From NCBI GenBank assembly GCA_045863295.1, contig BTWA01000061.1:1-22602 (forward strand): 22,602 bases of DNA, written 5' to 3'. The translations under genes and the position numbers were made by a program. This stretch comes from Candidatus Hydrogenedentota bacterium (GTDB lineage: Bacteria > Hydrogenedentota > Hydrogenedentia > Hydrogenedentales > SLHB01). Below are positions 9,096 to 14,747 of the stretch, piece by piece (the stretch's first letter is position 1; each line of letters opens with the position of its first letter). The notes below the pieces were generated by a model. It did no database searches. It worked only from the letters and a program-made list of their open reading frames with translations, and was not told the DNA's origin.

Positions 9096-9148
9096 TTGAC
9101 ATTTTCGATTACACGTGTAATTGTATTAATTACAGACGTAATCGAAAA
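9096..9148 (+). promoter_or_regulatory. Promoter region with two BlaI/MecI/CopY-type operators
   Basis: TTGACA at 9096-9101; ATTACACGTGTAAT (9108-9121, perfect palindrome) and ATTACAGACGTAAT (9129-9142), 21 bp apart. The first matches the TACA-N2-TGTA family consensus exactly, the second with one mismatch. Confidence 0.85.
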
Positions 9149-9158
9149 GGAGCAGATC

Positions 9159-9533
9159 ATGCCTAATCTTCCCAATATTTCCGACGCCGAATGGGTCGTT
9201 ATGCGTGTGTTGTGGGATCACTCCCCGCGTACGGCCAACGAGGTAGTCGAAGCGCTTGAACGGAACACCACGTGGAATCCCCGCACCATCAAGACCCTCT
9301 TGAACCGATTGGTGAAGAAGAAGGCATTGGGGTACCAAGCCGATGGCCGAGTGTACCGGTACTACCCGCTTGTTCAGGAAGCCGAATCGGTTCGCGAGGA
9401 AAGCCGGACGTTTTTACAGCGCGTCTATCGCGGCGCGCTCACCCCAATGCTGGCTCACTTTCTCGAGTCCGAAAAGTTGAGCAAGTCCGATATCGATGAA
9501 CTCCGGCGCCTGCTGGATGAGAAAGGATCCTGA
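9159..9533 (+). CDS. blaI: BlaI/MecI/CopY family transcriptional repressor
   Basis: AAGGAG RBS; ISDAEWVVMRVLW, TIKTLLNRLVKKKAL, LSKSDIDELRRLL. The symbol is family-level only. Confidence 0.95.
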   Translation: MPNLPNISDAEWVVMRVLWDHSPRTANEVVEALERNTTWNPRTIKTLLNRLVKKKALGYQADGRVYRYYPLVQEAESVREESRTFLQRVYRGALTPMLAHFLESEKLSKSDIDELRRLLDEKGS

Positions 9534-9535
9534 CC

Positions 9536-12500: not shown

Positions 12501-12964
12501 TCGAGAACGCGAATCATGCGGGAGCGGAAACCGCGGACGATAAAACATCTCGTCTACAAATCCGTTGGGTTGCCAAGGAAGGCGATACTGCCAACGCGGA
12601 GACATTTGAACGGGCAGGCAAAGAAGGCTCGGAAGCGCAGGTTGCCGTCGATGTCGAAGTCTTGATTCGCGACTCCGACGTGGCCGCGGCTGCCGTTAGT
12701 CCGGATACTGCCCCTAATAGCTTTGTTGTGACCGCCATTCTGAACGAGGAAGCAGCCCCGCGCCTCCAGAAAAGCTCACGCGAGAATATTGGGCGGAAAT
12801 TGGCGATTATTTTCGACAACCGCGTCGTCTGCACACCGGCGGTCCGAGCCGAAGTAGGTAACGTTGTCCAGATTACGGGCAATTTCACAAAGGAACAGGC
12901 AGAAGAAATTGCGCATGCATTGTCTGAGACATCAAACGACGAGAAGCCTGCGGAACAAGGTTGA
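9536..12964 (+). CDS. M56 (BlaR1-type) membrane metallopeptidase/sensor fused to STN-like, two DUF1559/H-X9-DG-like and SecD-P1-head-like domains
   Basis: [29 protein letters not shown], HEVAH (10289-10303), [23 protein letters not shown]. Then an STN-like region (~10775-11065), repeats at ~11235-11830 and ~11897-12500, and [40 protein letters not shown]. No penicillin-binding domain. Confidence 0.92.
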   Translation: [1142 protein letters not shown]

Positions 12965-13076
12965 GTCGTAGCGTTAGGCGTCTCGTCAATGATCGAATCA
13001 GAAGGTAATTGCCATTCTCGTCTTGAAAGCGCATTCTTTCTGGTAGCGTCATTGAAGCGGTCAGCAGAGGTGCCCG

Positions 13077-14747
13077 ATGCGTAATATCATCTTGTTGTGT
13101 TTGGGCGTCCTGATTGTGGGGGTGGCCGGGGGTCTGATTTGGAATCTGATGCAGCAGCGGGCTCCCGAACCGCCTCCCGCGCTTTCTGATACGCACCGGG
13201 AACCTACACCGGCGGTACCGCCTGCCGCTACACCTCCCCCCTCACCTCAAGCTACCTCACCCGACCCGCTGCCTATGGCCGAGAGCGTAAGGCCGCTTGC
13301 TCTTCCCTATGTTCTCAAAGGCACCGTCGTGGGACCAGTGTCAATAGCCATGATTGCCAATACGGATACGGGCGCGGAGGGCAAGTATTCCGAGGGTGAG
13401 TTACTGGAGCCGGGCGTCGTGGTAAACGCCATTAATAACCGTCAAGTCGTATTGGAGGCTCGAGGTGAAATCGTCATCCTCGAAATGGGTACGGATTTGA
13501 ATGGGACTTTGCCGGATCTCTCGGGAACGTGGAGGGCTGAGGTTGTCGATGATAATGGCAATGGGGTTGAGTCCGTGGATGTGAGCCTTTCCCAATCCGG
13601 CAATGAACTGACCATCAGCGTTGACAATAGTACCTTCTCGGGGACCCTTGTGGGTTTGCAGGTGCAGTTTAAAGGACTGATAAATGACAACGACGCCACA
13701 ATCACTGGTTCTTTTGACCCACTGGGGACTGTCTACAAAGGCGAAATGCGGTCTTTGGCGCCCGAGGCGGCACAGACGAATGAAATGGTCATGGCTGTCA
13801 CAATGACGCGCCTGACACAAGAACAAATAGTCATAGATGTCCTAAAAGTGAGCCGCGAAAAGGAACTACTGAAAGCGCTGCGCACCGTGTACGCGAGTCT
13901 GAAAGAGTTCGCTGAACAGAACAATGGAATTCCCCCCAGGACACTGGAGGAACTCGCATCCAAGAATCCGGATTTGCTGAATGCGTTAACCCAGGAAGGC
14001 ACACAGGTCACGTATTACAACAACGCCTTCCGGCACGATAAACAGGTGGAGGCCATACGGCGGTCGTTCTATGCCGAAGGCACACCAACGGTGGATCAAT
14101 TGCGGGCCATGGAGGCGGCGTTGACGGAAGTCTGGGGTGGACAGAGTCCATACGCTCGACCCCTAATACGTGTGCAAGACAACAGGACCGGCATTTCCAT
14201 ATCCATGGACGGATTTGGAAGCATCTCGAACGAAAACGATTCTCGGTACGATTCGGCACGCGGCAATGCGGACGAGCCCGTGGTGCGCGCCATGATTGCA
14301 TCGGATCAAAACAACATGAAGCAGTTGGGATTAGTGATCAAGATGTTCATGAACGAGCACGACAACATTATGCCGCCGGGTTGGAATTCGGTCTACCCGG
14401 AGTACCTGACCGATATGAATGTATTGCGTTCTCCTTGGGATGCCCCGGGCGAGCAGTCTTATGAATACCTGTTCCCTACTGCCACGGAGGAGAGCTTGCT
14501 TCAACTGGCGGCTGATTTGGTGAATTCAGGTCAAATCGCATCCGAGGACCTGGGGACAGACAACCCTCAGGCCTTGAACGCGCAGTTGATGAGCAAGGTT
14601 CCAATCCTGTTCAACCAGGCTGAGCTGCCGCGAACCCCCGGCCGGCCGGCGGCACGAAATGTGTTGTTCCTGGACGGCCATGTGGAAGTCGTACCCACGA
14701 GTGAATGGAACGCCCGCATCACGCCCTTTCAACAAAGAGCGGGCTAA
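13077..14747 (+). CDS. Membrane-anchored protein: GspC/PilP-like beta domain plus C-terminal DUF1559/H-X9-DG-like domain
   Basis: N-terminal TM helix; Pro-rich linker; [14 protein letters not shown]...[34 protein letters not shown]; C-terminal [17 protein letters not shown]...[11 protein letters not shown]. Confidence 0.8.
   Translation: [556 protein letters not shown]

Follow-up and report, generated by a model that had tools for sequence, protein, structure and literature searches.

Helix-less pilin-head domains in the sensor of a BlaI/M56-type operon from a Candidatus Hydrogenedentota bacterium

The 22,602-nucleotide stretch analysed here (the window; contig BTWA01000061.1 of assembly GCA_045863295.1, Candidatus Hydrogenedentota bacterium, a bioreactor/sludge organism) carries, between positions 9,096 and 14,747, three co-oriented genes on the + strand, coding for a BlaI-type repressor, an M56-family metalloprotease sensor (P0002) and a protein with a GspC-like domain (P0003). 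The reading we favour, which we regard as probable though well short of certain, is that they form a self-repressed three-gene operon of the BlaI/BlaR1 family (M56), in which domains akin to the heads of DUF1559/H-X9-DG prepilins act as binding modules and to which P0003 is a lineage-specific addition. An original prediction, made from the sequence alone, had listed twin operators, blaI, an M56 peptidase fused to an STN-like domain, two DUF1559/H-X9-DG-like domains and a SecD-head-like domain and, 112 bp downstream, a co-oriented gene for a transmembrane (TM) protein with a GspC-like domain and a third head. All of these parts were found in place, the gap being exactly 112 nt, and the view that the accessory domains derive from secretion and pilus components is borne out, as the secretin N0/STN domain, the GspC HR and the SecD P1 head all come from envelope machines. 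The coordinates are collected in Table 1.

The first two genes reproduce the layout of BlaI/BlaR1 and MecI/MecR1 (Staphylococcus aureus, Bacillus licheniformis): a Penicillinase_R winged-helix repressor directly upstream of a HEXXH M56 metalloprotease, with palindromic TACA/TGTA-type promoter dyads and the arrangement of an autoregulated operon. The likely start of blaI is the ATG at 9159, the listed open reading frame (ORF) opening at a TTG at 9096, and its stop codon lies 2 nt before the ATG of the sensor gene (9536–12964, 1142 residues). When residues 168–298 of S. aureus BlaR1 (8exs) are aligned with the sensor, the HEVAH motif of the latter (252–256) stands opposite HEYAH, and its last hydrophobic helix (~355–378) follows the protease domain as in BlaR1, with ~760 residues beyond it. 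In the proteins to which they usually belong, the domains recognised in that region (N0, pilin head, SecD P1 head) lie in the periplasm, and the C-terminal region of the sensor probably lies outside the cytoplasm. Unlike BlaR1 and MecR1, the sensor has these N0-like, pilin-head and SecD-head domains in place of a penicillin-binding sensor, neither a PF00905 nor a beta-lactamase-type match being detected at E ≤ 0.1 in Pfam and NCBIfam; NCBIfam blaR1_generic covers residues 153–388 only (score 196 against a cut-off of 400). A further difference from these systems is that no divergent resistance gene is found here.

The first domain beyond the membrane, residues ~395–530, appears to be secretin-N0/STN-like. 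In the sensor itself Pfam STN stays below its cut-off of 28.4 bits (residues 472–507, E 0.0018 and 18.5 bits; E 5.5e-5 and 23.3 bits for the segment alone), but among the 15 homologous segments taken from relatives STN was matched in 11 (best E 3.5e-10) and GspD N0 in 3, and a profile of the 15 segments matches the N0 regions of PilQ (6w6m_A, E 1.2e-4; 4ar0_A, E 3.9e-4). The genome holds seven M56 genes, six with blaI directly upstream, and the borrowing of periplasmic parts of envelope machines is, to judge from domain matches, the rule for its M56 sensors: the other six (L123–L128, on contigs C30, C8, C11, C1, C5 and C6) carry CARDB with OmpH/Skp, STN/N0-like, HEAT with ExbD/TolR and Big_5, CarboxypepD_reg, or no recognisable domain. 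A blaI gene immediately precedes the M56 gene in five of these six loci; at the sixth, L128, no neighbouring blaI was found. Secretin matches number at least seven in this genome, and one of them has a canonical GspC-like match ~2.5 kb upstream on its own strand. Proteins with which N0-, HR- and head-type domains could naturally pair are therefore present in this organism.

Three copies of a ~200-residue head occur at the locus (P0002 556–780 and 774–993, P0003 391–544), the second and third being 45% and 30% identical to the first. TIGR04294 (H-X9-DG) matches P0002 in two stretches at 36 bits against a cut-off of 19 and is not listed for P0003 in the NCBIfam scan. A hidden Markov model (HMM) of the head, built from 193 near-full copies in relatives and searched against all six-frame ORFs of the genome, matches 33 ORFs. 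The two strongest after the sensor (E 1.6e-48 and 8.4e-45) are a TM-anchored form and a non-cleavable-anchor form. Next come the canonical prepilins, matched over both halves of the domain with E values of 1e-28 to 1e-41. A prepilin-type motif is present in 25 of the 33 ORFs, in 23 by pattern and in two by eye, and one scanned prepilin of the genome combines PF07963 with PF07596. These matches mark the heads as homologous to the prepilin-type DUF1559 proteins of the genome. They share with DUF1559 (PF07596, SBP_bac_10)/H-X9-DG (TIGR04294) prepilins the NNLKQ-G-L start of α1-C and the C-terminal NVLF-DGHV motif. Neither a prepilin motif nor a hydrophobic helix was found before any of the three heads in P0002 and P0003; those of the sensor begin, after a low-complexity linker, at residues equivalent to the α1-C of the prepilins. 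The repeats of the sensor thus look like pilin heads that have kept α1-C and lost the leader and the polymerising α1-N; lacking that helix they could not polymerise through it and, in contrast to the prepilins, would have no route into a pseudopilus. They also differ from the prepilins in their compact ~200-residue form and in having Asp/Pro at the two positions where the head-family alignment mostly shows Cys.

The AlphaFold2 (AF2) model of copy 2, computed from 33 aligned copies, has a pLDDT of 92.8 and shows a sheet against which a long N-terminal helix packs. When it was compared with representative structures by VIA-align, type IV pilins and pseudopilins filled 20 of the top 21 rows, the best matches having low Z values: EpsG 4lw9 (Z 4.9, root-mean-square deviation (rmsd) 3.2 Å over 93 aligned residues), PilE (Z 4.5) and PulG (Z 3.9). 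Several results weigh against our reading of these domains. The match to the pilin fold is weak (Z below 5), Foldseek of the model against the PDB gave no match at E ≤ 0.001 and unrelated top rows, a profile of 33 heads found nothing among PDB sequences at E ≤ 1, and PF07596 is not matched by Pfam in P0002 or P0003 at E ≤ 0.1. On the last point, in genuine family members of this genome PF07596 mostly covers only profile positions 2–40. The pilin-like fold is thus weak but consistent, and the call draws mainly on sequence homology.

Some observations concern the prepilins themselves. About 20 of the prepilin-type DUF1559 paralogues in the genome have virtually identical first ~40 residues and divergent heads (for example G000:C10:61971-63137, C19:96555-97601 and C4:30484-32872), which suggests strong constraint or gene conversion acting on the helix. 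At positions 11613–11652 of the window, which encode part of a conserved head motif, numerous contigs of four sludge metagenome runs match over this ~40-nt stretch only and differ beyond it; these evidently belong to paralogues or to other organisms.

The helix-less head is found on M56 sensors, on anti-sigma factors of the extracytoplasmic function (ECF) type and on other exported proteins, so it is most likely a binding module, for input or for docking, and not a filament subunit. The heads may bind a small ligand, pseudopilins or machine parts, or may merely dock the sensor. A search with the two-head region matched 125 proteins, of which 120 were listed, nearly all from Candidatus Hydrogenedentes where named. 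According to the precomputed Pfam assignments, PF05569 occurs in 34 of the 120 listed, together with CARDB, HEAT, CarboxypepD_reg, TPR, Ank or LRR, and zf-HC2 with T2SSC in eight; sigma-70 regions, AhpC-TSA, VWA and DUF3352 are further partners. Many of these relatives are arrays of up to four heads in which a plain TM anchor or a signal peptide replaces the prepilin motif, and M56+head sensors in relatives pair the head with HEAT, CARDB, CarboxypepD_reg, Big_1 or extra N0 domains; the automatic names of the Joint Genome Institute label some M56 fusions 'prepilin-type processing-associated H-X9-DG protein'. A search of genome contigs with the whole sensor returned mostly M56 proteins of other phyla, through their conserved protease motifs. 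In four proteins of ~900 residues (P0007, P0009, P0013, P0016), an ordinary TM anchor that is not of the prepilin type is followed by four helix-less heads in tandem. Four others (P0107, P0110, P0113, P0124) have the look of sigma/anti-sigma fusions, a single polypeptide joining sigma-70 regions 2 and 4 to an H-X9-DG head (or PF07596) and to arrays of CarboxypepD_reg/Big_1.

The domains of the receptor region could also be docking or spacer modules that hold the sensor at an envelope structure such as the base of a pseudopilus, a secretin or the Sec translocon, the cue being sensed elsewhere, for instance in the membrane or by a partner protein. The occurrence of the head on unrelated exported proteins (AhpC-TSA, VWA, CarboxypepD_reg arrays, four-head TM-anchored proteins) would suit a localisation or binding tag, the numbers of heads and SecD heads vary among close orthologues, and TonB_C, a docking domain, is the second commonest C-terminal domain of M56 proteins in the accessible text of PMC13492132. 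However, in the M56 and anti-sigma families the head sits where extracytoplasmic input domains normally sit, and no partner structure has been identified. We hold this alternative to be unlikely while giving it real weight, and it counts against the favoured reading that the evidence does not separate heads that receive a signal from heads that act as spacers or docking modules.

The twin dyads upstream of blaI are the predicted BlaI operators. Both fit ATTACN4GTAAT and lie between the TTGACA hexamer and the AAGGAG/ATG of blaI. This motif exceeds chance expectation, with five occurrences in the 6.34-Mb genome against 2.5 expected, and the locus is the sole case genome-wide of paired relaxed sites (TTACN4GTAA) 15–40 bp apart. 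Twin dyads 21–26 bp apart precede blaI in the orthologous loci L122 and L134 as well, and at least two operator sites were seen in 27 of the 154 loci examined, several of these 27 being one place retrieved twice; M56 loci with the labels Phycisphaerae and other phyla are among the 27. Among the M56 genes of the genome the ATTACN4GTAAT twin operator stands at this promoter only, so that, judged by the motif, the switch seems to be insulated, with its own operon as sole target. A wider regulon was considered and dropped: the three single sites elsewhere (C19:72735, C38:51088, C67:6514), about the number due to chance, lie near a sulfatase-like gene, in or near small ORFs, and between a gene for a 781-residue protein of unknown function and an NHL-repeat gene, with no pattern. 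As for the spread of the operator type, twin ATTACN4GTAAT dyads 21–26 bp apart just before the M56 match recur in L043–L045, L051, L053, L059, L061, L076, L083 and others, labelled Phycisphaerae, Planctomycetota, Desulfatiglans and others, which suggests a wide distribution of this operator within one clade of BlaI.

No divergent gene uses the operon promoter, the upstream neighbour, a gene for an FAD-dependent oxidoreductase (7050–9011), being co-oriented with the operon, and the gene after P0003 is convergent. On the + strand of the 112-nt gap between the sensor gene and P0003 a consensus scan called neither a terminator-like nor a promoter-like site, and P0003 is probably co-transcribed with blaI and the sensor gene. 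In the favoured reading, BlaI dimers on the two dyads would keep the promoter off; a cue outside the cytoplasmic membrane would reach the 760-residue C-terminal region of the M56 protein, upon which the cytoplasmic zinc protease would be switched on, BlaI inactivated and the operon derepressed, a proteolytic mechanism that we infer from homology with BlaI/BlaR1. The receptor region would be a string of protein-interaction modules taken from envelope machines, namely the N0/STN-like domain, the two heads and the SecDF P1 head. Three points speak against this scheme. The residue pair of the repressor aligned with Asn-Phe, which we take to be the cleavage site of MecI and BlaI, reads His-Phe; the consensus scan called no −10 element or full promoter upstream of blaI; and co-transcription, like autoregulation, is only what we infer.

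The third gene has another history. The AF2 model of P0003 (19 aligned relatives, pLDDT 78.8) consists of the segments given in Table 1. The Pfam match to T2SSC (PF11356) is weak (E 4.4e-4, 20.5 against a cut-off of 27), but the modelled HR superposes on the HR domain of enterotoxigenic Escherichia coli GspC (3oss_C) with a TM-score of 0.85 and an rmsd of 1.3 Å over 64 columns at 31% identity, and the family profile matches 3oss_C (E 1.3e-5) and 7oio_A (E 2.9e-5). By model comparison, the barrel is similar to small barrels that bind ligands, among them Cap15 and the C-lobe of TbpB. Relatives of the N-terminal 390 residues were found in 12 of the 41 genomes searched, own genome included, where P0003 is the sole member of its family. 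In the 11 other genomes they lie behind ECF sigma genes, on contigs without M56 matches (the upstream ORFs were ECF sigma factors in all seven cases scanned), and an N-terminal zf-HC2 domain was matched in 11 of the other 13 members of the family that were scanned, in one of them just below the cut-off. Through these N-termini the family profile also matches the anti-sigma factor 3hug_B (E 9.9e-6), and P0003 is 34% identical to the zf-HC2 anti-sigma factor P0116 from residue 75 to the end. The family combines features of ECF sigma/zf-HC2 anti-sigma pairs (RslA of M. tuberculosis, 3hug_B) and of the GspC/PilP HR (3oss_C), having zf-HC2, a TM helix and a GspC-type HR and sitting behind an ECF sigma gene.

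P0003, in contrast, aligns with its family only from the TM helix onward, lacks the ~80-residue zf-HC2 domain and an adjacent sigma gene, and is placed after an M56 sensor; between the 112-nt gap and the part of the sensor gene coding for the SecD head there is no room for a zf-HC2 domain before it. By its alignment it is a zf-HC2-less derivative of the ECF anti-sigma family, which, without that domain, could not sequester a sigma factor. It would then be a former anti-sigma gene (GspC-type HR, barrel and head) minus zf-HC2 and the sigma partner and, if co-transcribed, would be the only non-regulatory product of the switch, which may tune the signal. The lack of the N-terminal domain and of the sigma partner, in a draft genome of 88 contigs, might in principle be due to an assembly chimera of a sensor gene with a 5′-truncated anti-sigma gene, or to P0003 being a decaying pseudogene. 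This we find hardly credible: positions 12908–13187 recur with 0 differences in a 280-nt contig of a run from a different study, and another run covers 13047–13216, so that the junction is not an artefact of assembly; the 556-codon frame is intact and begins at the TM helix of the family with GAGG upstream; and all residues invariant in the alignment of 19, P0003 among them, are kept.

Other features of this family may be noted. Its sigma/anti-sigma genes occur in L031–L042 (for example L032:7176-9582, L033:7346-9809 and L035:7309-9739), where the anti-sigma proteins (~615–636 residues) run from zf-HC2 through a TM helix, a GspC-type HR, an eight-stranded barrel and a helix+sheet domain to an H-X9-DG head; no description of such HR+head anti-sigma factors was found in the literature searched. 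The helix+sheet domain of P0003 (248–385) opens with A-L-x-x-Y-A-x-x-H-x-G-x-F-P, reminiscent of pseudopilin α1-C. The hhalign match of this domain to the head alignment spans 51 columns, all in the first helix, at a probability of 31% (E 5e-4), and a search of PDB sequences gave nothing meaningful; the domain may be a second, degenerate pilin-like head.

The original prediction went further, taking the sensor and the downstream protein for a dedicated pair in which redeployed pilin heads serve as the receptor, possibly monitoring pilus or type II secretion system (T2SS) assembly or a ligand, with P0003 as co-sensor or output. Much at the locus invites this: the sensor has an N0/STN-like domain and P0003 an HR fold, the HR–N0 contact being a solved T2SS interface (3oss); no terminator was called in the 112 nt that separate the two co-oriented genes; the genome has just two T2SSC-like matches, P0003 and another that lies ~2.5 kb upstream of a secretin match; and at least seven secretin matches and ~25 pseudopilins are there to be monitored. 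In a possible variant, the HR of P0003 would dock on the N0-like domain of the sensor, copying the GspC–GspD interface; the predicted complex of P0002 400–525 with P0003 70–142, computed without controls, scored 0.12 against a mark of 0.32, which weighs neither for nor against it. The comparison with relatives nevertheless makes a dedicated pair improbable. Two true orthologues of the sensor were found among 135 genomes of the phylum, in G113 (P0037, locus L122) and G111 (L134), whose operons are 62–63% identical to this one. The G113 sensor (54% overall identity in BLASTP) has N0, one head and two SecD heads and is followed by a 137-residue Cys-rich ORF and then, by eye, by Xaa-Pro aminopeptidase- and elongation factor P-like ORFs; that of G111 has N0 and one head only, no SecD head, and is followed by a hairpin and T-run, read by eye as a terminator, and then by unrelated ORFs. 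A conserved small downstream gene was also looked for and rejected, the 137-residue ORF of L122 and a 211-residue ORF of L134 being unrelated to each other and to the window. A P0003-like neighbour was seen at none of the 11 other M56+head loci (L122, L134, L023–L028, L095, L137 and L139, three on short contigs and L028 split or frameshifted), both close orthologues included.

The heads tell the same story in a FastTree tree of 227 copies. The two heads of the sensor and that of P0037 form one clade (support 97), and the head of P0003 falls inside an anti-sigma clade (9 rows, support 98), which groups with the prepilin heads of the genome (support 95) and not with M56-linked heads. Carriage by an M56 protein requires 13 changes on this tree, at least six of them forced by supported branches. 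The sensor and P0003 therefore share a domain family and not a recent common origin, and the helix-less head is, as the tree and the domain partners have it, a widespread, repeatedly shuffled periplasmic module in this phylum. The linkage between sensor and P0003 is not conserved. Of the original receptor proposal there remain helix-less DUF1559/H-X9-DG-type heads in the extracytoplasmic part of an M56 system that has no penicillin-binding domain; the co-sensor does not survive, with linkage at 0 of 11 loci, a P0003 family found otherwise with a sigma factor and never with M56, and a head that is no close paralogue of those of the sensor. The expected conserved linkage of M56+DUF1559 fusions to GspC-DUF1559 genes gave way to domains that are freely shuffled.

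Alternatively, P0003 might be a regulated output and feedback element that, as the sole cargo behind the operator, is induced along with the regulators, binds through its head (and HR) the kind of partner bound by the sensor, and damps or tunes the signal. The sensor domain of BlaR1 and MecR1 is related to the penicillin-binding proteins that these systems induce, and the same logic would apply here. It would accord with a twin operator found once in this genome, the three single sites elsewhere being close to the chance number, with a promoter shared with no divergent gene and a convergent gene after P0003, and with the retention of all alignment-invariant residues in P0003. Against it, the orthologous operons consist of blaI and sensor only, so that the switch works or persists without cargo; the heads of sensor and P0003 are distant paralogues; and it takes for granted a co-transcription that is itself only probable. 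We think it rather unlikely.

A broader idea is that the one-component membrane regulators of this phylum, M56 sensors and ECF anti-sigma factors, carry the contact domains of T2SS and type IV pilus machines (N0, HR, helix-less heads) as decoy interfaces to sense whether pseudopilus machines and the ~25 pseudopilins are assembled or idle, with P0003 as an HR+head adaptor to the N0+head sensor. This is a long shot in our estimation; if true, it would be a new principle for surveying the assembly of envelope machines and would give a first functional handle on the DUF1559 family.

As the favoured reading has it, the operon is a variant within the known, highly modular BlaIR family, its pilin-head fusion being new to the literature searched. 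According to the accessible text of PMC13492132, ~15,000 M56 proteins fall into 254 architectures, ~6% have a transpeptidase domain and 96% lie near a BlaI homologue. The general point that BlaR-like proteins for the most part have no penicillin-binding domain is already in print there. CenIR of Clostridioides difficile resembles the present pair in having an M56 sensor without a transpeptidase domain beside a BlaI homologue, but the C-terminal region of CenR is described as short and disordered (PMC13492132, accessible text) and the sensor here has long, folded, machine-derived domains. The nine frequent M56 architectures named in that text include none with a pilin-type domain, though the full 254 may hold such fusions. 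For Tuwongella immobilis, the accessible text of PMC8567305 reports that a small number of SBP_bac_10 proteins lack the prepilin motif, having a Sec signal or none at all, and makes no mention of signalling fusions. No description of pilin-head sensors was found in the literature searched, the supplementary tables of PMC13492132 and PMC8567305 lying outside that search.

The locus adds a well-folded, machine-derived type of sensor to the known non-beta-lactam BlaR-like proteins. In Planctomycetota and neighbouring phyla, few families without a known function are as large as the DUF1559/H-X9-DG proteins. At least 41 DUF1559/SBP_bac_10 genes per genome are given in the accessible text of PMC8567305; the present genome has ~25 prepilin-type copies. 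A head that occurs as a soluble module on a transcriptional switch with a genome-unique operator offers a testable handle on this family, with a simple genetic read-out for head binding, and its presence on ECF anti-sigma factors with a GspC-type HR suggests that parts of secretion machines serve as signalling inputs throughout the lineage.

Table 1. Features of the blaI–M56–P0003 locus; positions refer to the window, residues to the protein named.
Feature	Position	Strand	Residues	Basis or remark
TTGACA, −35-like hexamer of the operon promoter	9096..9101	+		read from sequence
Operator 1 (predicted), 14-bp palindrome ATTACACGTGTAAT	9108..9121	+		also present in L122 and before blaI in many loci
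Operator 2 (predicted), palindrome ATTACAGACGTAAT	9129..9142	+		21 bp from operator 1; sole such pair in genome
Ribosome-binding site AAGGAG of blaI	9147..9152	+		sequence
blaI-type repressor, 124 aa	9159..9533	+		PF03965 E 2.6e-38; NF012168 E 1.6e-42; full-length alignment with MecI 1sd6 E 3.3e-27
Sensor P0002, M56 peptidase/transducer module	9536..10669	+	1-378	PF05569 at 16-349, E 3.5e-59
Sensor P0002, secretin N0/STN-like domain	10718..11125	+	~395-530	STN matches of relatives; PilQ N0 profile match
Sensor P0002, pilin-head domain 1 (H-X9-DG/DUF1559-type, without prepilin helix)	11201..11875	+	556-780	TIGR04294, self-alignment, HMM
Sensor P0002, pilin-head domain 2	11855..12514	+	774-993	TIGR04294, HMM, AF2 model
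Sensor P0002, SecDF P1 head	12629..12925	+	1032-1130	PF22599 E 5.8e-19, 68.5 bits against cut-off 27
Intergenic gap sensor–P0003, 112 nt	12965..13076	+		bridged by contig of independent run
P0003, 556 aa	13077..14747	+		TM, HR fold, barrel, helix+sheet domain, pilin head
P0003, TM anchor			2-26	AF2 model
P0003, disordered Pro-rich linker			after TM anchor	AF2 model
P0003, GspC/PilP HR fold, small β domain			78-136	AF2 model
P0003, 8-stranded β-barrel			150-245	AF2 model
P0003, helix+sheet domain	13818-14231		248-385	AF2 model
P0003, pilin head			391-556	AF2 model and head alignment

Head genes were also seen close to blaI-M56 operons in other genomes. In L141 (4133-5374) and L024 (10441-12013) a DUF1559/head gene is divergent from the blaI-M56 operon, which recalls the blaZ/blaR1-blaI layout; in L141 twin operators lie between the divergent pilin-type gene and blaI-M56, and the divergent head gene of L024 encodes 302 residues. 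L028 has an adjacent HEAT-head gene and L027 a pilin-type gene 2 kb from blaI-M56. An enrichment of head genes beside such operons is not claimed, given the small number of cases, at least 25 copies per genome, the relatedness of the genomes and post-hoc counting. In the rest of the window, positions 15117–22597 of the minus strand hold five long ORFs (415, 650, 232, 157 and 340 residues) with no Pfam match at E ≤ 0.001, and the left part carries genes for a sulfatase, a PIG-L deacetylase, a SIMPL protein and the FAD-dependent oxidoreductase.

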